Program-made: the position numbers and the translations under genes
DNA from: a virus
Virus record (IMG/VR): IMGVR_UViG_3300031553_000001
Span: 1-64,000 of that record
DNA: 64,000 nucleotides
Reading direction: 5' to 3' (one strand)
Notes under the pieces: model-generated
Told to the model about the DNA's origin: nothing
Databases searched by the model: none
What the model saw: the letters and a program-made list of their open reading frames with translations, nothing else
Shown here: one piece after another, positions 10,331-26,802 of the stretch
How positions within the stretch are numbered: position 1 is the first letter of the stretch
How the letters are laid out: every line of letters begins with the position of its first letter

Positions 10331-10438
10331 TTACTCAGCCTTCTTGGATACTATACGTAAGGTTTTGCGCTTGCGTTGGATCTTCACATCACCCTTTTTC
10401 CATACAAAATAGTATATCCTTGAATCTTTCTTATTCAT
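10331..10438 (-). CDS. 35-aa basic ORF coupled to the ART gene (candidate partner)
   Basis: MNKKDSRIYYFVWKKGDVKIQRKRKTLRIVSKKAE; ATGA overlap with the ART stop codon. Confidence 0.45.
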   Translation of the reverse strand: MNKKDSRIYYFVWKKGDVKIQRKRKTLRIVSKKAE

Positions 10439-11151
10439 ATCACCAACTCCGCCACCATCTCTCTGGTGTATTTACTTGGATCTCTAACATCACTAATAAC
10501 CTTGAATTTGGAACCTTTATTCAACAACAATTCGCTCTCTGTATCCCATCCAGTCACTCTCCATTTATCCATCCATATTGCCTTAGCTCCTTTTGGCAAC
10601 ATTATTTCCATCATCACACCCAATGAATGAGCTTCCGCAATATCCCTCACCATACTAGTCGAGACAAAAGCATCATCAGTAATAATAGCATTTGTTAAAT
10701 CCTCATCATCCTCAAATGTATGCCAACTAAAGCCACGATATACTATCACTGGTTCTGGCAATGCAGCTTCCACAAATACGGAATCCATAACATCTTCCAT
10801 ATATACATCAGGATCAGAATTTAACCTCATCTCTGAATAGCCACCCATCCTCAACTCATCATTCAATGTGGCATAATCATCAGTCTTGTATTGCTGCATT
10901 GCCTCATTTTGCTCATCTGTCAAATCTGTTGGATTTAGTGATGCCTGAGATGAAGCCCAATCATCCGCATTCTTTTCATTAGAAAACTTCAATACATCTT
11001 CACCCTTTCCAGCAAGTTCTTTCTCAGGCTTACCACCTTTAGTAGCTTTACCACTACCTATAGCCCTATGTTTCTCTCCAGTGTGAGTTCCTTCTGGAGG
11101 ACTATACCATCCGCTACTAGAAGATCCTTTGAGTGTGAGTTTCATCCTCAT
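10435..11151 (-). CDS. ADP-ribosyltransferase (VIP2/C3/Alt-like R-S-E clade) with KGSSSSGWY leader
   Basis: YATLNDELR, VYRG, FVSTS, ESELLL catalytic motifs. Confidence 0.85.
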   Translation of the reverse strand: MRMKLTLKGSSSSGWYSPPEGTHTGEKHRAIGSGKATKGGKPEKELAGKGEDVLKFSNEKNADDWASSQASLNPTDLTDEQNEAMQQYKTDDYATLNDELRMGGYSEMRLNSDPDVYMEDVMDSVFVEAALPEPVIVYRGFSWHTFEDDEDLTNAIITDDAFVSTSMVRDIAEAHSLGVMMEIMLPKGAKAIWMDKWRVTGWDTESELLLNKGSKFKVISDVRDPSKYTREMVAELVI

Positions 11152-11156
11152 ATCAC

Positions 11157-12050
11157 CTACTCAGCCTTCATCATCTGCAATCCGTATGTGTCCAATCTAG
11201 GCATCAATCCCAAAGATTTCATCTTGCCCAAATCGTATGTGGTGTTTTTTGGACGCTTAGCCAAACCTGGAAAGTCCTTCAACTGTGCTGGTTGTATTAG
11301 CGAGCCATCTAGCTCCCATACTCTGGCCACCTCCTTCGCAAAACCATACAAAGAGCATATAGTAGCGCCAGCCAAATTGCACGTCCCACACCATTTCAGC
11401 TGCACCATTTTCCAAATCGCATCGGCAGCATCGGCTGCGTACAATGGCTGGGTGATTACATCCTCCACAACACGCATTTGCTTTTCAGCAGTCAAGGCAT
11501 TGACTACATTAGTAACCCAATTCCCCCTTGCTCCAGATGGCGGCCAACCATACATCATAATGGGCCTGACTATTGTCAAATGTGCACTGTCTATGTGATG
11601 TTTGGCTTCGCGCTCCATCATAACCTTGCACCAACCATATGTATTGACTGGTGACAGCAAAGCATCCTCTTTATAAGGTGGAGAATCACCGTGATACACT
11701 GCATTACTAGATGCCAATACTAGCCTAGCTCCATACAGGTTGGTCAGCATTATTATCAAATGTGTACCCAATAGATTGATCTGACAACAAGATGTAAAAT
11801 CATTCTCACAAGCATCCACAGAGTTCTGTCCAGCCAAGTGGATAACCACATCCGGTCTGACCTTCTGAAACATCTGGACCATAGAATCTATGCTTCCCAA
11901 ATCCATATAGTACCCATCAGGGATGGGATGTCTGTGATATGTAGGATATACCTTGTATTTCTTAGGCACACTAGCCAACAGATATTTTCCAAGTAAGCCA
12001 CTGCCGCCCGTTATAAGTACATTAGTCGAGCTCGCCACGATATTCTCCAT
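11157..12050 (-). CDS. rmlD: NDP-sugar reductase, dTDP-4-dehydrorhamnose reductase (RmlD)-like
   Basis: ITGGSGLLG, VIHLAG, YGWCK, RPKNTTYD. Start placed at MENIV (12050). Confidence 0.8.
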   Translation of the reverse strand: MENIVASSTNVLITGGSGLLGKYLLASVPKKYKVYPTYHRHPIPDGYYMDLGSIDSMVQMFQKVRPDVVIHLAGQNSVDACENDFTSCCQINLLGTHLIIMLTNLYGARLVLASSNAVYHGDSPPYKEDALLSPVNTYGWCKVMMEREAKHHIDSAHLTIVRPIMMYGWPPSGARGNWVTNVVNALTAEKQMRVVEDVITQPLYAADAADAIWKMVQLKWCGTCNLAGATICSLYGFAKEVARVWELDGSLIQPAQLKDFPGLAKRPKNTTYDLGKMKSLGLMPRLDTYGLQMMKAE

Positions 12051-12765
12051 GCCAATAACGCCAAGTCTCAGGCAAGATTGCCCTGTACAAATGATGATGG
12101 TGCATATATCTCCAGATGCGTCCCTCCAACATGTAGTAGTATTCCTGAAATGGCTCCCATGGGGCCAAAAATTCCCAATCCCACGGCACGTGAAAATCAA
12201 TGTTGGCCAATCGTTCACGCTCACATAGGAATATCTGTTGGCTATTGTTCTGAGTCAACCTAACTCCGCCAGGTCGAAATCCACCATCAGCTATTTGTCC
12301 GCCTTCTGATGGGGACACTACTAAAATCTCTTTGTAGTGCGTCAATAGGTCAATTCCCATATCTATCCACGATGGATGGCCTGTGCGAATTATGCGACAA
12401 TCATTGTCGCTAAATGCCACGTAATCGGCATTGGACACCTTCAGCCCTATCAGATGATTGATGACGTGCCATTTCCAATAATGCGGTGCTGTTGGACCAT
12501 GTGTCCACTCATCGGCCAATAAATCCTCCTCTGGGATACCAAACTCCGTGAGGATGTTGGGATGATCCTCACTATCCACTATCTGTACAGCAGATGGAAG
12601 ATTGAATGGCGGCAATGGGTCAATTCTACCATGACAACGTTGGCGCACCACTATGACATTATCAAACTCGTATTGATTAGATTCCACCAGACCACGTAAA
12701 TAGCCTGGCGCATGCAGCTTTTCAACATCGCCATAGTAACAGAAGGTGATAAAATCTACACCCAT
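12022..12765 (-). CDS. GT-A fold glycosyltransferase (putative)
   Basis: ADYVAFSDNDC DxD motif; cluster context. Confidence 0.6.
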   Translation of the reverse strand: MGVDFITFCYYGDVEKLHAPGYLRGLVESNQYEFDNVIVVRQRCHGRIDPLPPFNLPSAVQIVDSEDHPNILTEFGIPEEDLLADEWTHGPTAPHYWKWHVINHLIGLKVSNADYVAFSDNDCRIIRTGHPSWIDMGIDLLTHYKEILVVSPSEGGQIADGGFRPGGVRLTQNNSQQIFLCERERLANIDFHVPWDWEFLAPWEPFQEYYYMLEGRIWRYMHHHHLYRAILPETWRYWHGEYRGELD

Positions 12766-13553
12766 CCATAACTCTCCAAATGTGTCTTGTAGCTTGTAAC
12801 TCCAACCAATTCCAACAGGTTATCAGGTAAATAAAGTGGACTATGCTTCCACTCCCAATGATCAGCTTGTAGATGTTCTATGGCCTGCTCCCTAGTCAAA
12901 TATAATGGACGTGTACAATGTAGTGGCACCATCAAATATCTCTCTTCACCGCCCCACAAATTTGCTTGGTTGCGAACTCTAGCAAGCCAATCATCTTTGA
13001 AACAATTAGTCACATCCCACAGAAAGCCACTTGATGGGCTGATAGATGTCAAATGTGAAGCCCAATCATTCGCCAAATGCACATCTGTGGTATGACCTCT
13101 TTTGATAACAGAACCCCTAGGAAACACCCGATGCACCAGCTCTGGATACCAACGAATGCGTTGGAAATTCTGCTCTACCTGTAAGCGGTATACCAAGATA
13201 TTATCATCATGCTTCTTGTGGATATAATGTATTTCATCCCAAACATGATATGCAAGTCCAGGGCTGTATACTTCATCCGCTTCAAAATGCCAAATCACAT
13301 CACCTTTGCATTGTTTATGCAGTAGATGTGCCTGCTCAAGACACGCCCCACCAATTCCAGGGATCCACTTGCCTTGCAGAACTCTAACTCCCAAATTGGA
13401 CAGTACTTTAGCTGTCTCATCGGTAGACTCCATATCCACCACTACCATCTCATCTACATAATATCGTATGGCATCTATGGCCTCCACAAATGGATAACCG
13501 CCTTCCACGCCGTTATGTATGAATGTAAATCCTGACACCAATATTGGACTCAT
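12756..13553 (-). CDS. GT2-like glycosyltransferase
   Basis: GYPFVEAI, DEMVVVDMESTDET, EADE; paralog of 9412..10290. Confidence 0.8.
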   Translation of the reverse strand: MSPILVSGFTFIHNGVEGGYPFVEAIDAIRYYVDEMVVVDMESTDETAKVLSNLGVRVLQGKWIPGIGGACLEQAHLLHKQCKGDVIWHFEADEVYSPGLAYHVWDEIHYIHKKHDDNILVYRLQVEQNFQRIRWYPELVHRVFPRGSVIKRGHTTDVHLANDWASHLTSISPSSGFLWDVTNCFKDDWLARVRNQANLWGGEERYLMVPLHCTRPLYLTREQAIEHLQADHWEWKHSPLYLPDNLLELVGVTSYKTHLESYGWV

Positions 13554-14125
13554 TATGCATCCCCTAATTTAACAACTATATTCACACCCTTCTCTATTAA
13601 CCATTCCAATGAAGCATCAGGACTGAAACCACTAGCTATCAATGCTTTAGCAGCAGCACTTACTCTACGTTCTGCCGCACGAACACCTTGTGTAGTCCCC
13701 GCACGTGCATACGATGCCCCTAATTCATACTCCAGCACCCACAACCTTGTCCAATTATCATAGTCACTAGCTGGTATACCTGCTGCATCAGTTAATATGT
13801 AATGAGCTTCTATACCAACATCCGTTGCATATATACCTGCACCAGGCTTATAAATTATTGAACCATAAGCCATATCTATTACGGATTTTGGAAGTTGCTC
13901 ACCAGCCTTGGCGTGATAATATGTAAGTTCGCCACTATGATATTTCTTGGCCTTCTTGCCCACCAAACGTGCTGTGATAGGCTTCTTCTCAACTGGCTTC
14001 TTGGTAACAGGTTTTCCCTTACCAGCCTTACCACTACCAATAACTCTATGTTTCTCTCCAGTGTGAGTACCTTCTGGAGGACTATACCATCCACTACTAG
14101 AAGAACCTTTAAGTGTGAGCTTCAT
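13553..14125 (-). CDS. KGSSSSGWY-leader protein with unknown cargo domain
   Basis: Starts MKLTLKGSSSSGWYSPPEGTHTGEKHR (ATG 14125 overlaps the upstream TGA), then a Lys-rich linker and ~130-aa domain. Confidence 0.75.
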   Translation of the reverse strand: MKLTLKGSSSSGWYSPPEGTHTGEKHRVIGSGKAGKGKPVTKKPVEKKPITARLVGKKAKKYHSGELTYYHAKAGEQLPKSVIDMAYGSIIYKPGAGIYATDVGIEAHYILTDAAGIPASDYDNWTRLWVLEYELGASYARAGTTQGVRAAERRVSAAAKALIASGFSPDASLEWLIEKGVNIVVKLGDA

Positions 14126-14988
14126 CCCACGCACTCCTTCACAGCCTTGAGTACCATCTTTCTGAAGCCGTATTTGTTGCATATCATATCCCTGGCCCGC
14201 ATACCCATATCATACCACCGCTGGTAATCATCTGCCAACATTTGACGCAACTTACTAGCCATCCCATCATATGGATTGGATATGCATACCTCATCACCCC
14301 AAGGCCACATATCGTACACCTCTTCTGTCAGCATTGGTATTCCATACGCTGCAAACAGTGCCCAACGCAATGGCTCTTGGAATGGATATTGATCTTGATG
14401 TATGTTGAGTGCAAATTTGGAATGCTTTAACACCTCATCACGGTTTGGCGCTTTATCCCAGGGCCAACAATTTGGCCCAATGTATCTGCGGTCGAATTGA
14501 TTATATAACCTAGCCCTACGATCAGACACATATGACATATGGACAAAGTCATAGTGCCGGTAGCTTATTTCCGATGGATGCCCAAGATCTGGATGCGAGC
14601 CAAGCACCACAAATCGCAACATGGATTCAGTTGCCAGTCGCTTATCACTCACCCACACATCGTCTAGCGTGCGCTCATAGATTTTATCTCGATTGACCTT
14701 GGCAAAGTTTCCTACACCATCCAGGCCAGATGTACGCTCCATAACCCAATAGCCGGATGGGCGTTCCAAACACCAATGCACTAGATATGCACTGTGTGGT
14801 TTATCAATTTGGTTGTTGATGTGTGGCTCCCATTCACCATTTATAGGTGTAACGATGTACACCAGTGGCTTACGAACATCCACTTCATCCACATAGCACG
14901 TCTCAAACTGGGATAGCTCTACCAGCTTCCAAAAATCGACATATGAATCATAGTTGTATCTAGTCTTAACGAAAACTATATCCATCAT
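14122..14988 (-). CDS. GT-B-like glycosyltransferase (putative)
   Basis: RDEVLKHSKFALNIH..EPLRW resembles CgeB-type C-terminal domains. Confidence 0.55.
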   Translation of the reverse strand: MMDIVFVKTRYNYDSYVDFWKLVELSQFETCYVDEVDVRKPLVYIVTPINGEWEPHINNQIDKPHSAYLVHWCLERPSGYWVMERTSGLDGVGNFAKVNRDKIYERTLDDVWVSDKRLATESMLRFVVLGSHPDLGHPSEISYRHYDFVHMSYVSDRRARLYNQFDRRYIGPNCWPWDKAPNRDEVLKHSKFALNIHQDQYPFQEPLRWALFAAYGIPMLTEEVYDMWPWGDEVCISNPYDGMASKLRQMLADDYQRWYDMGMRARDMICNKYGFRKMVLKAVKECVG

Positions 14989-15116
14989 TAATCCCTATAT
15001 CTGACAGATATGCCAGCCTTCCCAGATCCAACAGCTCTGTGTTTCTCTCCAGTATGAGTACCTCTACTTGGAGCATATCATCCACTACTAGAAGAACCTT
15101 TAAGTATAATTTTCAT
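14988..15116 (-). pseudogene. Leader-only cassette (MKIILKGSSSSG*YAPSRGTHTGEKHRAVGSGK...) with TGA at the Trp codon
   Basis: Near-identical to the leaders at 25.7 and 26.8 kb. TGA at 15078-15080; no cargo domain. Confidence 0.75.
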
Positions 15117-15166
15117 TCACACAACCCACCTTGTAACCCATCCTGGGTATACTGGAATCCAAACCG

Positions 15167-15934
15167 TCATATCCGGCCATCCTCGAAGTATGGATGGTCA
15201 CCAATCAGATGCTCTACATCAAACCGGTTGAATGGCTCTGGACGCCAAAATGGTTTACCCGTCTTATCATCACAGCCGTTAGTAGGATGTACACCACATT
15301 TGTGCTTCTTGCCAAACTTCCAGTCACGATATATTGGATACCAATTGCGTCTGAATTCTGCACGATGGCCATGGATCTTGGATTTGTATAGAACCAAAAT
15401 TGTGCTCTGTGCATAACCAAAGTGATAGAACCCCATTCCTGGTATATACCCATCACCCTTACCACTGGGCTTTATGATTCGCACTGGCATACATGCATCC
15501 CTACACACCCAATTCACCCCACACCAGAAATGAAGGGCATGCGTTCTGTAATCCCTAGCATCGTTCTCCCAAGCAAAATCTAGTGCCTCTGATAGCACAT
15601 CCAAATCCCAAACCTCATCAGAATCGTTCCACACGATTAAGTCAGCACCTTGTTGTGTCAAATAATTTACACAATAATCCCTATGAGTACCTTCTTGCCA
15701 AAATTGATCCACGTCGTGCCACACAACTATATCAAAGCCATCTGCTATGGCTTTCAACTCATCTCTGGACTCCCCATCAGGCAGTTTCGTATTGGTTATA
15801 CTGCCATGGCTAGGATGTGGTGTGTAGAATATGTGATATTCATCCACCAATGGCTCCACTGAGCGAATAGCCCATTTAAGCCACTCTCTACCATAGTGCA
15901 AACCACAATAAGCCACTATTTTCATACTACACAC
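15167..15934 (-). CDS. GT2-like glycosyltransferase
   Basis: WAIRSVEPLVD, WNDSDEVW, YHFGYA. Confidence 0.7.
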   Translation of the reverse strand: MCSMKIVAYCGLHYGREWLKWAIRSVEPLVDEYHIFYTPHPSHGSITNTKLPDGESRDELKAIADGFDIVVWHDVDQFWQEGTHRDYCVNYLTQQGADLIVWNDSDEVWDLDVLSEALDFAWENDARDYRTHALHFWCGVNWVCRDACMPVRIIKPSGKGDGYIPGMGFYHFGYAQSTILVLYKSKIHGHRAEFRRNWYPIYRDWKFGKKHKCGVHPTNGCDDKTGKPFWRPEPFNRFDVEHLIGDHPYFEDGRI

Positions 15935-15946
15935 TCTCCAAGGTAA

Positions 15947-15972
15947 GGGGATGGGCTTTTACACCCATCCCC
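15947..15972 (-). terminator. Hairpin after the capsid gene (terminator or mRNA stabiliser)
   Basis: GGGGATGGG-N8-CCCATCCCC, perfect 9-bp stem with only a weak U tract. Confidence 0.55.
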
Positions 15973-15987
15973 AAACTTAACAACTTG

Positions 15988-17496
15988 CTATGGCGTTGGA
16001 AGCCACAGTGATCCAGTAGCAGGCGTATCCGTGCACGCCATACCCCAACTTCCAGGCATATAGCTGGGCGCTCCACCAGGCATATAGTCTGGCTGATGCG
16101 TATCCGCTACGATTGGCTGCAGCTTACGCGAGCAGCATACATCCGCGATTCGTGCGCATGCCCAAGGCGCACTCAAGTAGATTTCAGGAGATGTGCCTAC
16201 AAGTGCCTTTCCGCACCACACATCCTCCAGGCCTTTGAACGCAAACCGGCCAGCGTTCTCCACCCTGATTCCAGTTGCGGCATTAAATTTCTTCATCAGG
16301 TTGGCAAAGTCAGACAAATCCAGGTACTCACCATACATGGTATCGCGATTGCCGATGCGTCTGGTCAACAGATAGATGTCGGCGCAGTAGTTTGCATTCG
16401 GCTTGGTAATGGTCAGGGAATCATCGATGATGATTGGAATGCTACGACCAGACTTGAGCGAGATGGTACCAACTACCTTGCGACCATCCCACATAGGGCC
16501 ACCGTTCAAGGATTTTCTGTAGTTCAAGATCTGCGAGCGCAAGGCTTGGTCAGTGACGTCATTGGCTGTAGTGACTCCACACACGCTATAGCAGGCAAAT
16601 GCATCCAGTAGACAGGTCGCCAGGAACCGTGTGGTAAACAGAACCATATCTGTATTTGAGATAGTGCCAATGGTTTGGGCACGATACTCAATGTCACCAG
16701 TTAGTTCTGCCAAGAAGTCAAAGAAATTTCCCCATCCATTGATCGCCCCATCCAGATCGTCATTGTTCCATGGAATCATGTAGGAATCTGCATATGGACA
16801 CGGTTGACCATTGTTATCCGTATAACCTGTCCTGATTATGGATTCCAATCCATTCATCTCATACGCGTTCTGGTGGCTGCCATGCACTGCGTCGTGTGCA
16901 ATGTCCTGGGATAGGACATTCATTATGCCATTCAGCTGCCATTCAAACTCGTCAGTGATGGGAGTGCCATTCACGCGCATTATTCGATCTGTTTCACATC
17001 GCTGTTGTGTGTTGTGTGGGCCAAGTGGGTCAGACTGACGATGATACCACGATGTGTGGCATATATCAAATTGACACTCGCCCCACTCCCATCCTAGTGG
17101 GAGCTCACATGGTGATCCAGCGCCTGTAGTGCAATCTTCAGCACCTTCTCCACGCCACCACGGTATGATCTGCACAACCCTTTTCCAAATCTGGTTGCGT
17201 CGCCATCCAAGCCAGTTGAGGATACCCCCAGTCTCAATTTGCAAACCAAAGATGTCCCCAGCAAAGCATGGATCAAAGATGCTGTTACGACCATAAATGG
17301 TCGGATTGGCCAGATTGGCATACGTGGTGGTCCAGTTTCCCTTCATCTGCGGCGTCATCTGTGACATGATGGGAACGCCACCATTATCACGTCTCATAGC
17401 AGTAGCAGTCTGCATAGTTGCTACTGCTTGAGCAAACCTGGGATCATTGAACATGGTCAACAGGTCTTCTGCCGACAGGTTATCAAACTTGTTCAT
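15988..17496 (-). CDS. Major capsid protein
   Basis: 502 aa following protease and scaffold; EMNGLESII and CADIYLLT motifs resemble HK97-fold capsids; hairpin downstream. Confidence 0.75.
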   Translation of the reverse strand: MNKFDNLSAEDLLTMFNDPRFAQAVATMQTATAMRRDNGGVPIMSQMTPQMKGNWTTTYANLANPTIYGRNSIFDPCFAGDIFGLQIETGGILNWLGWRRNQIWKRVVQIIPWWRGEGAEDCTTGAGSPCELPLGWEWGECQFDICHTSWYHRQSDPLGPHNTQQRCETDRIMRVNGTPITDEFEWQLNGIMNVLSQDIAHDAVHGSHQNAYEMNGLESIIRTGYTDNNGQPCPYADSYMIPWNNDDLDGAINGWGNFFDFLAELTGDIEYRAQTIGTISNTDMVLFTTRFLATCLLDAFACYSVCGVTTANDVTDQALRSQILNYRKSLNGGPMWDGRKVVGTISLKSGRSIPIIIDDSLTITKPNANYCADIYLLTRRIGNRDTMYGEYLDLSDFANLMKKFNAATGIRVENAGRFAFKGLEDVWCGKALVGTSPEIYLSAPWACARIADVCCSRKLQPIVADTHQPDYMPGGAPSYMPGSWGMACTDTPATGSLWLPTP

Positions 17497-17524: not shown

Positions 17525-18229
17525 CTACTCATCGCCGACTGGATTTCCCACAGCCATGTCCGTCAGGGATGCATATGCACGCCCATCAGAATCATAGATG
17601 GCAAATCCTTCCGGTGTGGTTGGCGCTACCACTTGGTTAACACCTGGCTCCGCCTTGAATGCTGTAGGCATCGTTGTTGCCTGTGCCTGTGACTGGGCAG
17701 CACTCCTAAATTGTGCCGCATTCGCAGCCGTTTCCAATTCAGAAGTTCCATCCATCACAGCACGTAGACGGATACGCTGCGCCGGTGACATATCGCCTAT
17801 CACTTGCTTGATTCTAGTGGTATCATCAACGGCCACCTGGTTGAATGTTGCTGCAAACTCTTTGAACATAGTACTCATTGAGTCCACAGTTTCTTTCAGT
17901 TCAGCAACATCAGCCACGATTTTAGCCAACTCTGGCACCTCTATCTCTACATCTTTTAGCATGCCCTGGACTTTGCCAGCCACCGCTTCAGACAGTAACT
18001 CTATAGATTGTGCCATCTCAGGTACAGTAACTTTCGAATCCGCTTCAGGCACATCCAAGGCCTGACGCATAGACGTCATAAATTCCTCGGAGGACATATC
18101 CTTCATCCTCACCAGGTCTTTATCCTCTACACCAGCCAAGAATGCATCTACGACCTCTTCAGGAAGCTCAGCGTCGATCAAACGACTACGCCACTTGCTC
18201 CTGATTTCCTTCATACTAATTTCACTCAT
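17525..18229 (-). CDS. Capsid scaffolding protein (putative)
   Basis: Acidic coiled-coil protein between protease and capsid. Confidence 0.55.
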   Translation of the reverse strand: MSEISMKEIRSKWRSRLIDAELPEEVVDAFLAGVEDKDLVRMKDMSSEEFMTSMRQALDVPEADSKVTVPEMAQSIELLSEAVAGKVQGMLKDVEIEVPELAKIVADVAELKETVDSMSTMFKEFAATFNQVAVDDTTRIKQVIGDMSPAQRIRLRAVMDGTSELETAANAAQFRSAAQSQAQATTMPTAFKAEPGVNQVVAPTTPEGFAIYDSDGRAYASLTDMAVGNPVGDE

Positions 18230-18253
18230 GGTTTATAGCTCCTCACTTGATGT

Positions 18254-19243
18254 TCATTCATTGACAGTGTAGGCTGTAATTGCAGTCTGTCTCACCGCAG
18301 GTTTGTCCGTGACGCTAATATCAAACGTCATTGATTTGAGCACCTGCAATCCAGCCAACATATTAGGTTTGGCGTAATACGTCTTGCACGTTGGACACAC
18401 CGCACCCAACATATAGTTTACCAGTCGAACAGTCAAACCGCTTCCACATTCTGGACAATGGCCTGCTGCCTCAACTGTATAAAAACCTCTTGATACTTTC
18501 CACCTACCAGTATTCCTGGCAACGTTGTCTTTCATAGATTGGGCAAATGCTGTATCATTCCAGATTCCTTTGTCTACCGCCCAATTGCCAATCCTAGCCA
18601 TACTGGTACACTTGCCCAGTTTGAAACCACGTATATGGAATAGCCTCAGTTCTGGATATTCTTTGGTACGCTCTGCACGAGCAATATCCCAATCCATCGC
18701 CTTGGTAGTGAACAGCTCTTGCTGCAAATCCCACGCAGCCGCTGTGGACACTGCCAGCCAGCCATCCTTTCCATCAGCAGTCTTGTATGTAGATAAGGCA
18801 CTACCGTCAGCAGTAATCTGCTTCAACAATGCTTGCAAAGCAAACTCTGCGGATGGGATGTTGCGTAGTGCATCCGTGAGCTCTTTGGTGACTTCCTCTA
18901 CTGACTCTGGTTCACTACTGGATGACTTTGGTTGCATAGCTGCACCGCACTTGGGACACTTAATCTCCATACAAGGCGTTCCGCGTTCGTGCGTTGCAGT
19001 TGCCCCACACTCTGGACACACGCACATATCCACACCGCCATCACCTTGCTTTGGACCACCAACACCTTGGCCCTCCCCCCTATCCTTCTGCTGCACATCC
19101 TCCACGTGTACATACAATGCGCGCAGATGAGCCAATGCATCAGCATGAGTAGGATGGCATTTCACGATTTCTTTTGGATCATCTTTAGTTCCCTTGACCA
19201 CACAAGTCTCATCTTCCCGTTTACGTAAGAAATACGGCATCAC
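18254..19243 (-). CDS. Prohead protease with zinc-ribbon insertions (putative)
   Basis: DLQQELF..LRLFH..KVSRGF..DISVTDKPA pattern like HK97-family proteases; several CxxC pairs; synteny. Confidence 0.55.
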   Translation of the reverse strand: MMPYFLRKREDETCVVKGTKDDPKEIVKCHPTHADALAHLRALYVHVEDVQQKDRGEGQGVGGPKQGDGGVDMCVCPECGATATHERGTPCMEIKCPKCGAAMQPKSSSSEPESVEEVTKELTDALRNIPSAEFALQALLKQITADGSALSTYKTADGKDGWLAVSTAAAWDLQQELFTTKAMDWDIARAERTKEYPELRLFHIRGFKLGKCTSMARIGNWAVDKGIWNDTAFAQSMKDNVARNTGRWKVSRGFYTVEAAGHCPECGSGLTVRLVNYMLGAVCPTCKTYYAKPNMLAGLQVLKSMTFDISVTDKPAVRQTAITAYTVNE

Positions 19244-19899
19244 ACACCTCCCAACCCTATGAATGGCGGAACCTCTACACCTATAGGCACTTCAACAACT
19301 TCCACATGTCCATCTCTGGACAGACAAACTTCACAACTCTCCTTGGCCGGATTAACCACCCAAGTTGCCTGAACTGTCTTGATGCCCTGGTCTGGATCTT
19401 CTCCAAGCACCTCCATGTCCCATATACATCCACACCTATGCCAACACGGTGCAGACTCATCACCTGGGATGTATGGCAATATGATGTTGGGAGTGCGTCT
19501 AACGTTGGGTGCAAAGTACCCCGCTTGTGCCTCATTAGCTAGAGTATTTCCAGCATCACCATACAAATGTGCCCTAGCCTGTATAGCCTTCAATGAAATG
19601 GTATCACGATTATCATAAATGGCCTGAGAAAAGCCATGCACCCATCTGTACTGCTTCTTCAGTTGAGCACCCACCTTGCCCCAATCAGAGGAAGTCATAG
19701 CATCCCAATCACCCTTGCCAATGGCAGCCGAACCAGTCAAATACAAGCGCAATCTGGTACGCATATCCTCTTCCCACATCCCAAGTGTAATACGTCCATC
19801 GTACAGATTCTTAGCCAATGCATCCATCGATCCATTGAAGGCAGTTTTGCGTGCCAATAAGGCTGCTGCCTTAGCTGCATCCGCAATAGGGCCAGCCAC
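19240..19899 (-). CDS. Head morphogenesis (MuF/gp7-like) protein
   Basis: Follows the portal; PGDESAPCWHRCGC and ESCEVC Cys motifs. Confidence 0.5.
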   Translation of the reverse strand: MAGPIADAAKAAALLARKTAFNGSMDALAKNLYDGRITLGMWEEDMRTRLRLYLTGSAAIGKGDWDAMTSSDWGKVGAQLKKQYRWVHGFSQAIYDNRDTISLKAIQARAHLYGDAGNTLANEAQAGYFAPNVRRTPNIILPYIPGDESAPCWHRCGCIWDMEVLGEDPDQGIKTVQATWVVNPAKESCEVCLSRDGHVEVVEVPIGVEVPPFIGLGGV

Positions 19900-21969
19900 T
19901 TAGACACTCTCCACATACGGAGCCAATTCTGGAATAGTTCTCCAAACAGCCATCTCAGCATTGATGGCCTTGCGCGTCACCCGTGCTCCACGATCCACTT
20001 CATCATCGGGGATAGGATGGCCTGATATATTGGGTTCTAGCTCATCCTCTTTCATAACCACATCCAATGCAGGATCAACCACGCCAGCAACCCATTTCTC
20101 CAACGCTGCGTGTCCGTACCCTGAAACGCTTGTATCTTCTGTAGATATGTCACCACGCCTTATGAATTTGGAAACATCTCGTAACACTATAATTCTATGT
20201 GCACTGGCAAACATAGTACCAGGAATATCATGAATCTGTACATCATCTGGATGCACAAATCCTGTAACGACGCCACCACCAGCTTCTGCGTACACTTTGG
20301 CATTGCCTGGAGTATCATAGAAATACACGCCAGGACCAAATTGTCCCTCGGTGCTTGGCCTAATGACTTTCAAACCACCAGGCCCTGTACCTCTAAATAC
20401 GGGAACATATCCCAAACCTTCCAACTGGCTACGTGACATACTACCCAATGCGCCAACTTTCTCTCCAACTCCAATATGCGTACCTTTGGGTGGCCCATAC
20501 CAACCACTAGAGGATGAACCTTTCATAGTGATAAGCTTGGCTCCACTCAACCGGCCAGCACGCCATATAAAGCGTATCACATCTTCTAGATATTCCTTGT
20601 GGATCTCGCCGGATGTGATGGCTATGCGTTCATCTCCAACCACCCACTCTGGAAGCACTTGCTTATCGGCCAGCAGCCGTTTGAACGTCTTTATGTCTAT
20701 GGCAGCTTCACCTGCTTTTGGGAAAGCCAATGGCAAATATGCCTCAATCCACGCCTTGGCGATATTTGCCGCCACCATATCCTCTTCAATATCTTGGGTG
20801 TCGAATTCAAACACGACATCCTCTGGCAACTCAGCATTCAGGCTACGCTCCACCATAGTGATGAATTCTCCACCACCCTTACCTCTGGCCTTGAGATGCT
20901 GCACCTCTGCTTCTGATGCTGTTCCCAGTGCGCCGGTGGAGATAGCCCAAAACTCACGCGTGTCCACACCAAAGTCCAGCGCTAAGGTGTTAACATATTG
21001 TGCCACAACCGTTTGACGGTCAAATGACTCTGGAATGGCTGAGAACGACTGAATAGATATTTCCACCTTGGCTCCAGGGTTGTTTCCCACTAGCCATAAC
21101 ACCTGTGGAAACGTCAAACTGTTGTTCTTCTTACGCTCTGCCTGCCACATCGCAATGGCTTGACGAAATTCTTTGTCAGACATTCCAGTCACGGACGCTA
21201 TACCCTCCGGTGGCAAGTTGGACAATTTCTCAGCATCGTAGTCGTGCAGGGCCATCAATAATTTGGCTGCCCGTGCCGCCCTGGACGTGGCACAGTAGCC
21301 CATCCCATGAGCAACTTCATTGGGGAGGGGCATTGATGCGAAATGGATGAACATTCCAGGCTTATACCAGATCTCCTGATTGGTAGCTGCTGAGTAGTAG
21401 TACATCGGACGCTTGGGATTGCCTGTCATCTTGCAACATCTAGTATCAATGGTAGCCAAATCCGACATCTTGCCCCATTGTCCACCACGCCGCGTCACGT
21501 CCCACCATACACCATTGTCTTGCGTATAGAAATCTATGGCGCTGGTACCAATGAATCCACCCCACTCATTCCCAGACAAATATCTGGTTCTGGACAACAT
21601 CTGGGATACCTGGTTGGCGTTGTTGCGGCCACCTTCCACCTTCCAAGTCATGGCCTGCATCTTGGCCACCATAGAATACACAGCACCAGCCAGGATCGGT
21701 TCTTCCTTCCATATAGCGTCCAACCACCGGCTATAGGCCACAGTGCCACGTTTGGGAATACCATCACTTTTGCCTAATGCCTGGATGCTCATAAACATGC
21801 CAAGCACGCCTGCATCCTCAGATTTGGTGTGCACATCCAGACGGGTGTCAGCTTCACGAGCAGCTTTGAATTGCGCTTCTGGTTCTGGAACAGTCCTCAG
21901 TTGGCGAAATGCTTGCCAGGATTCGCCCAGGTCTGTAAAGAACTCGGCAGCGTTATTCAGCAAGGACAT
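19900..21969 (-). CDS. Portal protein with inserted KGSSSSGWY leader + ART-like domain
   Basis: First long ORF after TerL; GALGTASEAEVQH portal-like region. Insert ~20050-20530 with VFRG..GQFGPGVYFYD..AKVYA. Confidence 0.75.
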   Translation of the reverse strand: MSLLNNAAEFFTDLGESWQAFRQLRTVPEPEAQFKAAREADTRLDVHTKSEDAGVLGMFMSIQALGKSDGIPKRGTVAYSRWLDAIWKEEPILAGAVYSMVAKMQAMTWKVEGGRNNANQVSQMLSRTRYLSGNEWGGFIGTSAIDFYTQDNGVWWDVTRRGGQWGKMSDLATIDTRCCKMTGNPKRPMYYYSAATNQEIWYKPGMFIHFASMPLPNEVAHGMGYCATSRAARAAKLLMALHDYDAEKLSNLPPEGIASVTGMSDKEFRQAIAMWQAERKKNNSLTFPQVLWLVGNNPGAKVEISIQSFSAIPESFDRQTVVAQYVNTLALDFGVDTREFWAISTGALGTASEAEVQHLKARGKGGGEFITMVERSLNAELPEDVVFEFDTQDIEEDMVAANIAKAWIEAYLPLAFPKAGEAAIDIKTFKRLLADKQVLPEWVVGDERIAITSGEIHKEYLEDVIRFIWRAGRLSGAKLITMKGSSSSGWYGPPKGTHIGVGEKVGALGSMSRSQLEGLGYVPVFRGTGPGGLKVIRPSTEGQFGPGVYFYDTPGNAKVYAEAGGGVVTGFVHPDDVQIHDIPGTMFASAHRIIVLRDVSKFIRRGDISTEDTSVSGYGHAALEKWVAGVVDPALDVVMKEDELEPNISGHPIPDDEVDRGARVTRKAINAEMAVWRTIPELAPYVESV

Positions 21970-22312
21970 TTTGGGATACCTCGTCCATCAATCTGGTCAA
22001 CAAATCCATACTCTGCTGTATAGTTTCTGTATCAATATTCCTGATTGTGTCCATATCTATAGCATCTGGTGATACATAATATGGCGATTCTACATCCGGC
22101 TTATAGCCATCACAACTGAACACGTGGCACCCAGAAAGTGTCATGATAGTATTGTCGTGCATGACCTGAATTAATGGACAGTTACCAACATTCAAGCAGG
22201 AAGCGCACCGCTCATCCTTCCAAACGATGTGCTCTTTCAGTCCATTGTTATGTTCTGGATTTATAAGGTCTGGCATATCACTCTCTCTTGGTAAATGCTG
22301 TCTTACTTCCAA
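21953..22312 (-). CDS. Hypothetical Cys-containing protein
   Basis: ORF in the operon; CASC..CP..C motif. Confidence 0.4.
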   Translation of the reverse strand: MEVRQHLPRESDMPDLINPEHNNGLKEHIVWKDERCASCLNVGNCPLIQVMHDNTIMTLSGCHVFSCDGYKPDVESPYYVSPDAIDMDTIRNIDTETIQQSMDLLTRLMDEVSQNVLAE

Positions 22313-22484
22313 ACCAAAAACCTAGTATTAGCATGGCCGCTGCCCATAACTCCTGCGGCACTGGACGTTCCATCAAATACATCACACAAATGGTTGTCAC
22401 CATTCCCAATGTAACCAAACTCTGCACAATTATACTCTCTCGAAACAGCTCCCAAAATGGTTTCCAAGTACTTTTAGTGAACAT
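22278..22484 (-). CDS. Small two-TM membrane protein, holin-like
   Basis: Two hydrophobic helices ending ILGFWFGSK; GGAG RBS. Confidence 0.5.
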   Translation of the reverse strand: MFTKSTWKPFWELFRESIIVQSLVTLGMVTTICVMYLMERPVPQELWAAAMLILGFWFGSKTAFTKRE

Positions 22485-22499
22485 GTAACTCCTCCGCTG

Positions 22500-24083
22500 C
22501 TAAAATACTACTCCACTTCCACCCGATGTCTCTTCCCAAAATGCCAATACACAAGCATCTCCATAGTCAGTAGATCGCCCATGTCGTGTCTTCTTACGCA
22601 AGATGTCCTTAGACTCCACACAGATAGTCAAATATCCATGAATGTATCTAGTCTCATATCTGGGAGCAGCCAAATCCCCTAGCAGGTAGTCATTTGGACA
22701 CAACGCTACATCAGCACCACTATCAGGATCTAACATCTCTCGCATATTCCACCATGCAGCATCTCTCACACATCTAAATCTAAACGTTCCAGTCTTATCT
22801 GTACGGGTTGTCCCACCACCCATATAGATCTGAGCCAAGTTCATAGACGGGTTGGCCCAATCTATCTCCTGGGCCAATATATCGTATATGGAAGCACCTA
22901 AACCTGAATCCATCTCAATGTTAGTCAAATGAGCATGCATGGCAAAGGGCTTCAATTTTCCTGCCGACACCGGAACAGACTGTTTGGCATATACATACAA
23001 ATTCTCTAACCTATCCCCTACCCTATCTGCAAATACAGTCTTATCCTCACCCATACGCGCGGAGTCAACTCCAATCACACGCTTGCTCAACCCTGCACCT
23101 GGACTGCCAGCTTTCTCCCACTGCCTATACCGTTCAAATGCAGCTTCAACCCACTCCAATGGAATGACACCTTCACTGGAATCTTGAGCAAATTCTCCAA
23201 GAACGCGATTCTTGTATACTGCTGAATGAACTCCCCACTGGCTCTGGCGTTCCTCTGCCCATTGAGGAGATATGCGATTAGCAGCTATGGCCTCATCCAA
23301 AGTCACATGTCTAACTATCCAATCATCATAACCTGCTTTCTTGGAATGAATGTCATAGAATCTGCCTTGGGGTGGGCCTGGTGTAGATATGGCCAACCAA
23401 AAGCATTCACCACTACCGCCGCCTATGGTCGATGTGCCTTCTGTGGCAAATGCGCCCTCAGCAGCATCCCACATGGATGGCCCAACACTCTTGCTTTCAT
23501 CAAATATATAGAACAACCTACTGGCGTGCGCTCCCTCAATGGATGCGGCATCTCCAGACGAAACAGCAAATGACTCATTCCAACCCATCCCAGACCTGAT
23601 GCGAAGCGAATGGACCATCATCTCATCGTGGGTGTATGGATCACGGCCAATGGTGTTCCAATCCAACAACTTGGCAACTTTGTGAATTTCCGGCCACAGA
23701 AACTTTTCCAACTGCCGCCACACACTAGCTAATGTGGGTGCTGTAGCATCATCCTCAGTGGTAAGGATAACATGATGGACACAAATTGCTGCTATCAATG
23801 TTTTGCCCAGACCATGTGGGCCACGCATAGCTACTCTACGGTGCCCCATATCAAACCAAGCCAAGGCTTCCTCTTGGTAAGGTGCAAATGTTGGTGCTAT
23901 CTTTGGCATACAATCATACACAAACGCCACTCTGTCATCACGGTAGGTGCGTTGGAATTTGGCAAATTTTGTACTATGCCCAACATTTATATAGACACCT
24001 CTGGCAAGGTCAAGCAACCCTTTTTGCTTGCCACCCGTGCCAAGACCTCTTTGGTGCAATGCTACATCTGGAAATACTGTCAA
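22500..24083 (-). CDS. terL: Terminase large subunit
   Basis: Walker A GPHGLGKT, Walker B FYIFDE, ISTP, nuclease IGVDSARMGED and STDYGDA. Confidence 0.92.
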   Translation of the reverse strand: MTVFPDVALHQRGLGTGGKQKGLLDLARGVYINVGHSTKFAKFQRTYRDDRVAFVYDCMPKIAPTFAPYQEEALAWFDMGHRRVAMRGPHGLGKTLIAAICVHHVILTTEDDATAPTLASVWRQLEKFLWPEIHKVAKLLDWNTIGRDPYTHDEMMVHSLRIRSGMGWNESFAVSSGDAASIEGAHASRLFYIFDESKSVGPSMWDAAEGAFATEGTSTIGGGSGECFWLAISTPGPPQGRFYDIHSKKAGYDDWIVRHVTLDEAIAANRISPQWAEERQSQWGVHSAVYKNRVLGEFAQDSSEGVIPLEWVEAAFERYRQWEKAGSPGAGLSKRVIGVDSARMGEDKTVFADRVGDRLENLYVYAKQSVPVSAGKLKPFAMHAHLTNIEMDSGLGASIYDILAQEIDWANPSMNLAQIYMGGGTTRTDKTGTFRFRCVRDAAWWNMREMLDPDSGADVALCPNDYLLGDLAAPRYETRYIHGYLTICVESKDILRKKTRHGRSTDYGDACVLAFWEETSGGSGVVF

Positions 24084-24084
24084 C

Positions 24085-24423
24085 TCAGCTACCTATCCTG
24101 TGCCCATGCACGTTCAGCTCACCCACGATCACGCCACCAGCAGCTGCCAGAGTGATGGTTATGGCCGATGAGGCATCACTCTCTTCCTCATACAGTGGAA
24201 GGAAGCCTGGCCCACCACTCGTTATGTCCCAAGCATAGTCAAATCCACCACCGCCCATAGTCATCCGGCCACCTGTGGGCGCAGCTGAATATGACCAACT
24301 AAGACCTGAGAAGACGTGTCGTCCAGCCCTGAATGTGATAGACACTGCTGTATTGGGTACAGATCGCGCGTGTAATGATGGCCAAACTGTAGTTGGCTTT
24401 ATGGAAACTTCACCATATGGCAT
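24085..24423 (-). CDS. Hypothetical beta-rich protein
   Basis: Likely start MPYGEV at 24423 after an AGGAG RBS. Confidence 0.45.
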   Translation of the reverse strand: MPYGEVSIKPTTVWPSLHARSVPNTAVSITFRAGRHVFSGLSWSYSAAPTGGRMTMGGGGFDYAWDITSGGPGFLPLYEEESDASSAITITLAAAGGVIVGELNVHGHRIGS

Positions 24424-24498
24424 CCTTATTCTCCTAAATTCCCTAGAAATATAAGAAAAACAACCAATATAACGGCATATTCGCACAAAAACTTTGAA

Positions 24499-24897
24499 TT
24501 ATTCGCGTCTACCCATCTTCTTGCGCAACATATTAGCTCCACTTAGTGGACTAGCCTGAGCCATCTGCCGGATGTTGGGCATCCCAGTAGATGATTGTAT
24601 CGGCGCAATATTGAATGCTGGTGGTTCTACTGTCTGAGTAAACGCTGTCTGGCCTAGATGCTCCAACAAGGAATTTAGCTCTGCTATGGATGCATCCAAT
24701 GGAGCCAGCTCAGCCTTTACCCGCTGCTCCAACTCCACTATTCGTGCCTTGCGAATTTCCAACAACTCAGTCAATCGGTTGCGAATAACGGCAACAGGAT
24801 CAGGCCTGGCAGGCGGTGGAGATTCTACCGCCACAGGTTCTATGTGGGACACAGGCATCCCAGATGGATCACCAGAACCATGGTCAGCTTTTTTCAT
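24499..24897 (-). CDS. Hypothetical coiled-coil protein
   Basis: ATGA overlap with the upstream gene. Confidence 0.5.
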   Translation of the reverse strand: MKKADHGSGDPSGMPVSHIEPVAVESPPPARPDPVAVIRNRLTELLEIRKARIVELEQRVKAELAPLDASIAELNSLLEHLGQTAFTQTVEPPAFNIAPIQSSTGMPNIRQMAQASPLSGANMLRKKMGRRE

Positions 24898-25730
24898 TTG
24901 ACATATCTCGTGCTAATTCCAGCAGCCTCCAGAGCTGATCTGGCAACGGAATATTCCGGTTGTGTCCCATGCATTACTACGTGATCTATGTCAGACAATT
25001 TGATTCCACCATGGATCTGAGCTTCTACGTAATTCACAACTTGGAAGGCATCATCATGTACATACATGGAACTCAAATCCCAAGATAGCTTACCAGGATT
25101 ATTGACAGGAGTAGCCCCAACTTCACCATCAGCAAAGCCACCAAAAGAATCTCCCACCGTGAAGGTAGTGCGGTTTCGTATAGAAGACTTCAATACAAAC
25201 TCTACAGCTCCATATTGCGTAACCCCACGATCTGTATACCCAGGATTGCCCATATATCCATATATGGGATAGTTTGCTGGATCCTCCCCTGGTTTAACGT
25301 TGAATGCCTTGGACTCAACCTTCTGTCTGAGCTTTGGATTGTATGCACCCTTAGATTTGCCAGTCTCATATTGATTCTTGAATCTGCCAGATTCTAGTAT
25401 AGATTCCACTGCCATAACTGGAGCACGTATAGATACAGCAGACTCACTCAAGAACTTTTCCATATTCTTTTGGCATGTAGCTTCATATTCCTTTATACCA
25501 ATATCTCTCAAATAAGCACGTGACTTAGTGCTATTATCGACAGCATCCACTAATTTCTGAGATGGAGCACGTATTGCACGTTCTGCCAAGGATTTACTTA
25601 CAGCTGGCTTCTTGCCGCGTGCTTTACCACTCTTCCCAGATCCAATAGCTCTATGTTTTTCACCTGTGTGAGTACCTCTACCTGGAGCATACCAACCAGA
25701 ACTAGAAGAACCCTTGAGCGTAATCCTCAC
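24894..25730 (-). CDS. KGSSSSGWY leader + DUF3626-like domain
   Basis: GRFKNQYETG, YPIYGY, YGAVEFVLK, RTTFTVGDS, YVEAQIHGG. Confidence 0.7.
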   Translation of the reverse strand: MRITLKGSSSSGWYAPGRGTHTGEKHRAIGSGKSGKARGKKPAVSKSLAERAIRAPSQKLVDAVDNSTKSRAYLRDIGIKEYEATCQKNMEKFLSESAVSIRAPVMAVESILESGRFKNQYETGKSKGAYNPKLRQKVESKAFNVKPGEDPANYPIYGYMGNPGYTDRGVTQYGAVEFVLKSSIRNRTTFTVGDSFGGFADGEVGATPVNNPGKLSWDLSSMYVHDDAFQVVNYVEAQIHGGIKLSDIDHVVMHGTQPEYSVARSALEAAGISTRYVK

Positions 25731-25966
25731 GTGGAAGCCGCCTTCAGTTTGAGCTTGGCTTTGGGAACGGGCTTCTCGGTAGTAACTTCAGACTCTGGTG
25801 GATCCTCCCAATAGCCCCACTTTAGCGCCTGCTGAATACGCATCGGCTTGGATTTGGTATTGGTGATAGTGTTGTGCAGGACGCACATGGCATCAAAGTC
25901 CTTGACGTCTACATCATCATCCACTATCATATCAATTTCACCACGTTGGGACAGAATTTTGGACAT
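25727..25966 (-). CDS. Small protein between the two DUF3626-like genes (candidate partner/immunity)
   Basis: 79 aa; QQALKWGYWE motif. Confidence 0.55.
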   Translation of the reverse strand: MSKILSQRGEIDMIVDDDVDVKDFDAMCVLHNTITNTKSKPMRIQQALKWGYWEDPPESEVTTEKPVPKAKLKLKAAST

Positions 25967-25971
25967 ATTTC

Positions 25972-26802
25972 CTACCTCTCATCACGCGTCACAGATATAC
26001 CAGCTGCTTCCAAAGCAGCCGTCGCACGATAATAATATGATATAGCAGCACTTCTAGTATGCATTACCACGTGATCTACATCAGCCAAACTAATTCCACC
26101 GTGAATTTGTGCTTCCACGTAGCCTACTCTATTGAACTGATTTTCATACACATACCTGGCATTTCTGTCCCAAGACATCTTGCCTGGTTTGTTGACAGGA
26201 GTAGCTCCAACATTGTCATAGGCAAAATTACTCAGTGAATCCCCTACCGTAAAAGTGGTACGATCTCTGACAGATGACTTCAATACAAATTCTACATCTC
26301 CATACATTCGCGCTGTCTTTGGATTACTGGGATGACTCATATATCCATAGATGGGATAACTTCCTGGTTCCTCTCTTACCTCTATGTTGAAGGCTTTGGA
26401 TTCCGCTTCTTGCCTATATGTTGGGTCATAAGTACCTCTGGATGTAGTAGTTTCGTGTTGATTCTTTAATCTACCGGATTTTAGGATAAATTCTACTACT
26501 TCGGTAGGCGTTCGTACAGATACCTCTGATTCACTGAGAAATTTCTCCATATTTCTCTGACATTTAGCTTCATACTTCTTTGTACCCATCCCCGATGTCT
26601 TGCCACCCATGACGATCTGCCTATCAACAGTCATCCATAACTCTCCAGATGGAGTATGTACCATACGTTCTGCCAAGGATTTCTCGGTAGGCTTCTTACC
26701 AGCCTTACCAGATCCAACAGCCCTATGTTTCTCACCAGTGTGAGTACCTCTACCTGGAGCATACCATCCGCTACTAGAAGAACCTTTGAGTGTGAGCTTC
26801 AT
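25972..26802 (-). CDS. KGSSSSGWY leader + DUF3626-like domain, paralog
   Basis: Same motifs as 24894..25730. Confidence 0.7.
   Translation of the reverse strand: MKLTLKGSSSSGWYAPGRGTHTGEKHRAVGSGKAGKKPTEKSLAERMVHTPSGELWMTVDRQIVMGGKTSGMGTKKYEAKCQRNMEKFLSESEVSVRTPTEVVEFILKSGRLKNQHETTTSRGTYDPTYRQEAESKAFNIEVREEPGSYPIYGYMSHPSNPKTARMYGDVEFVLKSSVRDRTTFTVGDSLSNFAYDNVGATPVNKPGKMSWDRNARYVYENQFNRVGYVEAQIHGGISLADVDHVVMHTRSAAISYYYRATAALEAAGISVTRDER

Follow-up and report, generated by a model that had tools for sequence, protein, structure and literature searches.

What does a short peptide do when it stands at the head of several unrelated genes in one phage? The question is raised by the first 64 kb (64,000 nucleotides; hereafter the window) of the IMG/VR virus record IMGVR_UViG_3300031553_000001, which is complete at 77,754 bp and carries direct terminal repeats; in this DNA a glycine-rich leader of about 35 residues precedes different toxin-like cargos in and around the head module. 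An earlier note made on this DNA had read the leader as a capsid-loading or ejection tag with interchangeable effectors. Here we describe the leader, its cargos and its homologues, and weigh the functions that it may have. The account we favour, and hold tentatively, is that of a tag loading head-internal effectors much as the capsid-targeting sequence (CTS) of phage T4 does, and probably also acting as a processing site.

A degenerate DNA pattern for KGSSSSGWY has exactly six sites in the window, all on the minus strand (11105-11130, 14085-14110, 15076-15101, 20498-20523, 25690-25715 and 26762-26787), where shuffles expect 0.07; it has no match in the remainder of the complete genome. The encoded motif reads hxhxhK-G-S-S-S-S-G-W-Y-x-P-x-x-G-T-H. 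Four copies begin intact genes, encoding a predicted ADP-ribosyltransferase (ART), two DUF3626 (SopF-type) proteins and one protein of an unnamed family, while the other two are a relic and a copy within the portal gene. The six copies and the gene positions listed in the earlier note were confirmed. The free-standing leaders and their cargos are:

10435..11025, minus strand: basic linker and predicted R-S-E ADP-ribosyltransferase cargo (ADPrib_exo_Tox; phrog_3895; YRG, STS and ESE motifs)
11026..11151, minus strand: leader copy 1, M(RM)KLTLKGSSSSGWYSPPEGTHTGEKHRAIGSGK..., of the ART gene (degenerate pattern and translation)
13553..13999, minus strand: K-rich linker and unnamed-family cargo (BLAST to leader-tagged homologues)
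14000..14125, minus strand: leader copy 2, its ATG overlapping the upstream TGA as ATGA (degenerate pattern and translation)
14989..15116, minus strand: leader-only relic without cargo (TGG changed to TGA at 15078-15080; its TAA abuts the ATG of the next gene)
24894..25604, minus strand: linker and predicted DUF3626 (SopF-type) cargo a (PF12294, E 1.7e-12; phrog_8314)
25605..25730, minus strand: leader on DUF3626 gene a, its GTG start overlapping the upstream TGA (degenerate pattern and translation)
25972..26676, minus strand: linker and predicted DUF3626 cargo b (PF12294, E 1.3e-10; 59% identical to cargo a)
26677..26802, minus strand: leader on DUF3626 gene b, with an ATGA overlap with the upstream open reading frame (ORF) (degenerate pattern and translation)

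In three of the four intact leader genes the start codon overlaps the stop of the preceding gene (ATGA or GTGA). A basic linker with 6-12 K/R per 34 residues follows the leader, in agreement with the Lys-rich linker described earlier for the free-standing genes. Pfam supports the ART and both DUF3626 cargos. The ART gene (10435-11151) matches ADPrib_exo_Tox (PF03496) with E 2.4e-24 and 86.2 bits against a cut-off of 23.4, and its translation shows VYRG, VSTSM and ESELL; we regard the product as a predicted ADP-ribosyltransferase of the R-S-E class. SopF is an ADP-ribosyltransferase too, and the two DUF3626 cargos are predicted members of the DUF3626/SopF family, their matches to PF12294 reaching 47.4 and 41.2 bits against a cut-off of 27 and covering only positions ~16-115 of the 301 in the profile. 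The SopF domain and DUF3626 are one and the same (PMC6682159). The unnamed cargo (13553-14125 with its leader) is 31-48% identical by BLAST to other leader-tagged proteins, with homologues in P0025, P0029, P0033, P0035 and the N-terminal part of P0006; it has no Pfam or PHROG match and no usable Atlas match. Alignment-free structure predictions of the portal insert and of this cargo gave unusable models (pLDDT 34 and 38, respectively).

In the relic (14989-15116) just seven codons follow GSGKAG before the TAA, which shows that leader cassettes also get lost. Reading its TGA as Trp was rejected, given that the other five copies have TGG there. The small ORF at 25727-25966 precedes DUF3626 gene a, and its stop overlaps the start codon of the leader as GTGA; a homologue of this ORF in P0016 continues in frame into a leader.

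The conserved unit is the peptide and not the DNA. The closest pair, the leaders of the ART and the unnamed cargo, is identical at 94 of 105 nt over 35 codons (11 nt differ), with eight synonymous and two non-synonymous codon changes; between the ART and DUF3626a leaders there are 16 and 8, respectively. For the remaining pairs DNA identity is 54-87%, many of the changes once more being synonymous, and exact matches between copies extend to 8-29 nt at the longest. Because synonymous changes dominate and exact tracts do not exceed 29 nt, selection acts on the peptide, and this selection is purifying. To call the copies near-identical in DNA is therefore an overstatement, and the idea that conserved DNA serves as a recombination anchor for swapping cargo becomes weak on the same grounds.

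The sixth copy lies in the portal gene:

19900..21969, minus strand: portal, 689 aa, with a core (residues 28-470), a variable linker and a conserved ~45-aa C-terminal tail (Atlas, homologues)
20050..20523, minus strand: 158-aa in-frame insertion, portal residues 483-640, consisting of a leader copy and an ART-PolyVal-like domain (homologue alignment)

The protein has the fold and family of a phage portal (PF04860-like): residues 28-470 give an Atlas features score of 0.97 and TM 0.62-0.78 to PF04860 portal clusters, with no direct Pfam match. Its core has 208 homologues, up to 71% identical, many of them on 75-82-kb contigs and one from an Izemoplasmatales metagenome-assembled genome (MAG). 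In an alignment with the closest of them the core ends with ...VRFIW.AGRLS and is followed by a short variable linker and a tail of ~45 residues, I.G.PI.D.EV.RG..VT.K...E...W.TIPELA.Y. The insert begins exactly at KGSSSSGWY; the KLITM just upstream is native portal sequence. The earlier note had located a copy internal to the portal (~20460-20530), and there is one, as the start of this insertion rather than as a loose internal motif. Its cargo gives a weak ART-PolyVal hint (E 0.14) and is clearly a homologue of module 2 in a 764-aa protein of locus L051 that has several modules (phmmer, 3.4e-14). Among the 120 portal homologues listed, the window's motif occurs in the window protein only and is absent from the 119 others. 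Other portal homologues carry cargo in the same linker behind a sister motif, type B, introduced below: a kinase-like domain in P0131, an HExxH domain in P0104, and further cargos in P0132 and P0111. In P0080 a 2H/LigT insert occupies the same linker without any motif. Complex prediction of the portal core (residues 1-478, with 61 aligned rows) and the aligned leaders gave a score of 0.00, a value that carries no verdict and speaks neither for nor against an interaction.

A profile made from the five intact leader copies was searched against 1.84 billion protein cluster representatives. It identified 45 of these at E <= 1e-3 and 22 at E <= 1e-10, and in nearly all 45 the leader occupies residues 1-45. 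Their consensus, here called type A, is hxhxhK-G-[GS]-x-x-S-G-W-[YFH]-[AGS]-P-P-[KR]-G-T-H-[ST]-G-E-K-H-R-x-V-G-S-G-K, with a linker behind it that is basic or rich in Pro/Ala. The cargo types that it heads number at least eight. They include a PI3/PI4-kinase-like domain (38.6 bits), R-S-E ARTs, GNAT, DUF3626, the unnamed family of the window, HExxH proteins with no Pfam match and further unnamed families, as well as weak matches to DRAT-like and PARP/ART-PolyVal-like domains. A single chain may hold more than one leader-cargo unit, three in P0005 and two in P0006. That effectors are interchangeable behind one tag is hence strongly supported: with at least eight cargo families, homologous leaders do not always carry the same cargo.

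Type A matches just two IMG/VR contigs, and type-A polyvalent proteins were found in proteobacterial MAGs. Word-indexed searches with the leader alone returned almost nothing beyond the query's own cluster, and an IMG/VR scan with the window-specific leader gave no match. At a threshold as loose as E 0.1 the leader has no match to any Pfam family, L27 included; PDB searches by sequence and by profile returned nothing meaningful for it, and most cargo families have no PHROGs match. In 50,697 phage records, tblastn with the capsid protein, the portal core and a type-B leader gave no match, and no cultured relatives were found.

Relatives of the window were collected from IMG/VR as stretches found via the portal; their portals are 45-63% and their capsid proteins 50-59% identical to those of the window. 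They share a module order of terminase, small ORF, portal, MuF, protease(-scaffold) and capsid protein. These relatives lack type A, and many of their head-module genes start with the type-B leader, M-K-L-T-L-R-F-K-G-G-x-G-S-G-[NH]-[FH]-G-H-x-G-R-P-G-x-x-G-G-S. Seven tagged ORFs with nine motif copies occur in L056 and four tagged ORFs in L046, and L048, L049 and L056 contain leader-cargo-(leader)-MuF fusions of 675-701 aa. Type-B cargo includes Zeta_toxin, ART-PolyVal, ADPrib_exo_Tox and 2H, and in L051 both DUF3626 and the domain of the window's portal insert sit behind type-B leaders. Types A and B take the same position before the same cargo families, and share the half formed by strand, K-G-G-x-G-S-G and aromatic residue. 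Since a profile-profile comparison aligns only 13 columns (P 0.005), the homology of the two types rests on position, the N-terminal half and cargo. A strict type-B DNA pattern was found in at least 115 IMG/VR stretches, with 1-9 copies per locus and always on one strand. Several adjacent genes in L057-L059, whose portals are 28-29% identical to that of the window, bear a third leader flavour, A-W-F-x-G-W-x-V-T and then K-G-[GS]-x-x-S-G-N-W-x-H-K-G-R-x-G-K-x-G-G-S.

Tagged genes occupy several sites. In L009 they lie between the terminase gene and the small ORF before the portal, an interval in which the window has no tagged gene, and in L046 between the terminase and portal genes. Further cassette sites in relatives are the portal linker, the position N-terminal to MuF, the MuF-protease interval and the region upstream of the terminase. 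In the window cassettes are found downstream of the capsid gene as well, among glycosylation genes.

The motif also marks domain junctions. In L020/L021 the order is Phage_portal, acidic linker, motif and ADPrib_exo_Tox, with a ddrB-ParB gene as neighbour. Over 233 aa that take in the leader, the L021 protein shows 44% identity at its C-terminus to the ART of the window, so that the same unit of leader and ART is free-standing in the window and fused to the portal in L021. An N-terminal domain, the motif and then an ART make up the L024 protein; in L030 the motif similarly separates an N-terminal domain from one matching a minor-head-protein PHROG. In L034 a MuF homologue carries the motif C-terminally, just where its reading frame stops. 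In L007 and in L035/L042, the latter a prophage of a Steroidobacter MAG, the motif opens SNF2 helicases similar to the helicase half of DarB. In this prophage (L041/L042) a methylase ending in LPD1 precedes the motif-starting helicase gene, and a 1615-aa protein of a Burkholderiales MAG (L040) reads InPase - motif - ... - LPD1 - motif. The DarB-like methylase-helicase is split exactly at the boundary of LPD1 and motif in L041/L042, the two being fused in L040. InPase and ddrB-ParB are hallmarks of phage-type polyvalent proteins (PMC5512222).

Several known systems resemble this arrangement in part. The T4 CTS of the internal proteins IPI-III and Alt has been reviewed (PMC9026906, PMC9958956). 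Like the leader, it is a short N-terminal peptide; the unrelated T4 proteins that share it are head-internal and injected, one of them being an ADP-ribosyltransferase, and the leader likewise stands at the extreme N-terminus of unrelated head-module proteins (the four intact window genes and most of the 45 clusters). The T4 CTS is portable to other cargo and its targeting is coupled to prohead-protease cleavage, whereas packaging and cleavage of the window's leader are what we infer from sequence. The differences are several. The T4 CTS has ~10 residues ending in L/I-x-E, while the leader has 16-35 conserved Gly-rich residues plus a linker, with no L/I-x-E site of the gp21 type and no sequence similarity. 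Unlike the T4 CTS, the motif also occurs at internal domain junctions and inside a portal, and the phage lineage is not T4-like. In P1 the N-terminal 30 residues of DarB direct this giant methylase-helicase, and a reporter, into the capsid (PMC9024508), and it is the helicase half of DarB that the motif-starting helicases of L007 and L035/L042 resemble. The P1 authors saw no consensus among the N-termini of the Dar proteins (PMC9024508); in contrast, one leader consensus is common to many cargoes and phages.

Polyvalent proteins (PMC5512222) share the effector repertoire (ART, ART-PolyVal, InPase, LPD1, ddrB-ParB, methylase-helicase, zincin-like proteins and kinases), the head-gene context, encoded among portal, MuF and head genes, and the portal and MuF fusions; moreover, the motif lies inside true polyvalent proteins (L040, L041/L042). 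The window genes differ from them in having a single cargo each, each with its own leader, while motif-bearing relatives do combine effectors (InPase and LPD1 in L040; L041/L042; P0005; L051). Iyer et al. argued that polyvalent domains are packaged and processed (PMC5512222); a text search of that paper found no mention of a linker or glycine-rich junction. MuF polymorphic toxins (PMC5576092) are like the relatives in that variable toxin domains are placed on a head-internal MuF carrier in the head module. Their layout of N-terminal MuF and C-terminal toxin is not that of the window or its relatives: the MuF of the window is free and untagged, the relatives place cargo N-terminal to MuF (leader-cargo-MuF), and no immunity genes were identified.

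The VENN motif of CdiA and the DPxGL motif of Rhs, which lie at the end of the large delivery domain of secreted bacterial toxins, coincide with processing and/or recombination. Such pre-toxin junction motifs are likewise short, conserved and located at the boundary of an exchangeable toxin module (PMC3482391). Unlike VENN and DPxGL, the leader motif also begins free-standing genes and belongs to predicted virion proteins. A Prp-cleaved leader of the K-L-x-L-x-F type is common to ribosomal protein L27 of Firmicutes and to capsid and scaffold proteins of Staphylococcus phage 80alpha. By eye, type-B leaders resemble it, since they start MKLTLRF or MLRL and continue KGGxGS...GR (L054:1257-1376, L056:13809-13928), but type-A leaders are mostly without Phe and a site of the K-L-N-L-Q-F-F type is only loosely similar. 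No Prp (PF04327) was found in the window or in five relatives, and for that reason a phage-encoded L27-type leader peptidase was rejected; a Prp could be supplied by the host. Encapsulin-type cargo-loading peptides, which bind HK97-fold shell proteins on their inner face, resemble the leader (hxhxhKG) by eye only.

What could then be the function? In the account we favour, the leader would be a portable module-start tag for effector enzymes travelling inside the phage head, made up of a short hydrophobic strand, K-G-[GS]-x-x-S-G-W-[YFH]-x-P-P-x-G-T-H, (S/T)GEKHRxVGSGK and a basic flexible linker. During assembly the tag would dock its cargo onto a procapsid component, as the T4 CTS does, and it may also mark a cut site for the maturation protease; tag, linker and cargo would move jointly as a cassette between sites of the head module. 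Docking together with a cut site would account for the tag at the N-terminus of free cargo as well as at portal, MuF, protease or cargo junctions, and we prefer the dual role because targeting alone or processing alone leaves cases unexplained. That the effector modules are carried in the head is the most economical reading of their context, because of the head genes, the portal and MuF fusions, the DarB-like helicases and the InPase, LPD1 and ddrB-ParB domains. All leaders have a hydrophobic-Lys boundary before the G. Such a boundary is also present on either side of the portal insert (ITMK|G, VVMK|E), and in relatives it aligns with the edge of the variable capsid N-terminus. This lead is weak, since such dipeptides are common.

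Other genes of the head module, with the terminase gene for context, are the following:

15988..17496, minus strand: putative major capsid protein (gene order)
18254..19243, minus strand: putative prohead protease with an N-terminal domain and zinc ribbons (invariant His203 and Ser251)
19240..19899, minus strand: MuF-like head protein, free-standing and untagged (phrog_24776; homologues in L044-L056)
22500..24083, minus strand: large terminase (phrog_2, E 2.3e-29)

The product of 18254..19243 (329 aa) is a probable prohead protease, judged by gene order and by the invariant His203 and Ser251; their distance of 48 residues we take to match that of the catalytic His and Ser of the HK97 protease. 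Sequence and profile searches gave it no Pfam or PDB match. In its distant homologues P0040 and L032 the leader motif follows the N-terminal domain. Between the MuF-like gene and this motif-bearing protease-scaffold gene, L032 has a B12-binding radical-SAM gene (L032:5058-6776). Protease (329 aa) and scaffold (234 aa) are separate in the window (17525-19243), where the L047-L056 relatives have one gene of 465-515 aa spanning both, and the N-terminal domain and zinc ribbons of the window protease are unlike the consensus N-terminus of the relatives. The putative capsid protein has no family or PDB match by sequence or profile searches; in relatives its variable N-terminus of ~50 aa ends at the hydrophobic-Lys boundary. 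The MuF-like protein (219 aa, without cargo) owes its name to a Cys motif read by eye, and its homologues in L048, L049 and L056 are fused to leader-cargo extensions at the N-terminus. Glycosylation-type genes (two GT2, GT1-like, RmlD-like reductase and CmcI-like methyltransferase) are interleaved with three leader cassettes at 8175-15934 of the window. This block lies downstream of the capsid gene, and no such block is apparent in relatives.

Several points weigh against a loading and processing tag. Targeting would be superfluous for motif copies already fused to portal, MuF or protease, cleavage is pointless for N-terminal copies, from which it would remove only 5-9 residues, and the dual role is assumed so as to cover N-terminal and fused copies alike. 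No second motif closes the portal insert on its C-terminal side, and the window's own putative protease lacks the leader motif. Copies of the wider type-B set lie mostly inside proteins of 500-1900 aa and do not conserve the Lys ahead of GG. For the protease and the capsid protein the assignments depend only on gene order and a small number of invariant residues. Finally, the clade has no cultured member: packaging of the tagged proteins in virions, their cleavage and ejection and their binding partner are all things we infer. The earlier proposal of a capsid-loading or ejection tag agrees with the position in the head module, with the fusions to DarB-like, portal and MuF proteins and with the polyvalent hallmarks, but a processing or host-side role fits about equally.

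One alternative, which we consider unlikely, is that the motif is a processing or junction site and nothing else. Like the sites in viral polyproteins or the pre-toxin junctions, it would be where polyvalent head proteins, and also the fusions of cargo to portal, MuF or protease, are cut into effectors; N-terminal copies on free genes would then be inherited from excised modules. Iyer et al. did propose that polyvalent proteins are cut into units (PMC5512222), and the distribution of the motif agrees: most type-B copies are internal to large multi-module proteins, the motif precedes each module in P0005 (three copies), P0006, L024, L040 and L051, and split-gene boundaries fall just upstream of it (after LPD1 in L041/L042, fused in L040). 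However, on free-standing genes, where a cut would have no upstream part to take off, purifying selection has maintained the complete motif in at least 45 divergent proteins, and ~16-30 conserved residues are far more than the usual protease site has. Nor does any protease co-vary with the motif: the search of the window and five relatives for a Prp gene was negative, and none of the window's cargos is an HExxH protein.

Equally improbable to us is a role that each module needs after assembly, be it threading through the portal and tail channel, riding the DNA at ejection, or localising or activating the enzyme in the infected cell. This would be the only single function to cover conservation at N-terminal and internal positions alike. 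The motif is rich in Gly, His, Arg and aromatic residues, is probably disordered and has a basic linker behind it. To our eye the GRPG core of type B may resemble AT-hook-like DNA binding, and the N-terminal half may faintly resemble the N-terminus of ribosomal L27. Against this, type A has no GRP, and no Pfam family including L27 matches the leader at E 0.1.

That the leader is the recognition site of a modifying enzyme, either the interleaved glycosyltransferases (acting on the Ser run of KGSSSSG) or a radical-SAM enzyme, we hold to be very improbable. GT2, GT1-like, RmlD-like and methyltransferase genes do lie between cargo genes at 8.2-15.9 kb, and in L032 a B12/radical-SAM gene is directly upstream of the motif-bearing protease homologue. 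Yet the tagged genes of relatives are head to tail or separated by short gaps (gap sequence unannotated), as in L056 with four tagged genes between MuF and protease and a largest gap of ~570 nt; most leaders have GGxGSG instead of a Ser run, and the glycosylation block is specific to the window genome. A repeat that matters as DNA only, by way of a recombination anchor or recent gene conversion with a functionless peptide, is hardly credible: some pairs have exact tracts of 21-29 nt, and the relic, the insertion in the portal and the varied cassette sites all testify to turnover of cassettes, but the excess of synonymous differences largely refutes it and the peptide is conserved in homologues with unrelated DNA, across type-A proteins of many metagenomes.

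Returning to the loading tag, the leader would be a further instance of a known principle, for which the T4 CTS and P1 DarB are precedents. Searches with motif strings of both leader types found no relevant paper, and we provisionally regard the motif family itself as undescribed in the literature searched, the coverage of which is incomplete. A bolder claim, which we advance with more doubt, is that the Gly-rich leader family (A: KGGxxSGW[YFH]xPPxGTH; B: GGxGSG[NH][FH]GHxGRPGxxGGS) marks the whole set of virion-carried injected effectors in many uncultured phages and in prophage polyvalent proteins. Proteins packaged in the head and injected are the first move of a phage against host defences, and outside T4 and P1 they are not predictable from sequence. 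If the account is true, the leader would give a sequence-level handle on injected effectors in a large uncultured clade, the ~75-80-kb phages of sediment metagenomes, and on polyvalent proteins generally. The effectors concerned are ARTs, SopF-like ARTs, lipid-kinase-like and Zeta kinases, GNATs, zincin-like proteins, 2H enzymes and DarB-like helicases. As a loading signal the leader would be a candidate tool for packing foreign proteins into capsids. The leader family links architectures so far treated apart, giant fused polyvalent proteins and arrays of small tagged genes, and the injected proteome of these phages would become readable from sequence.

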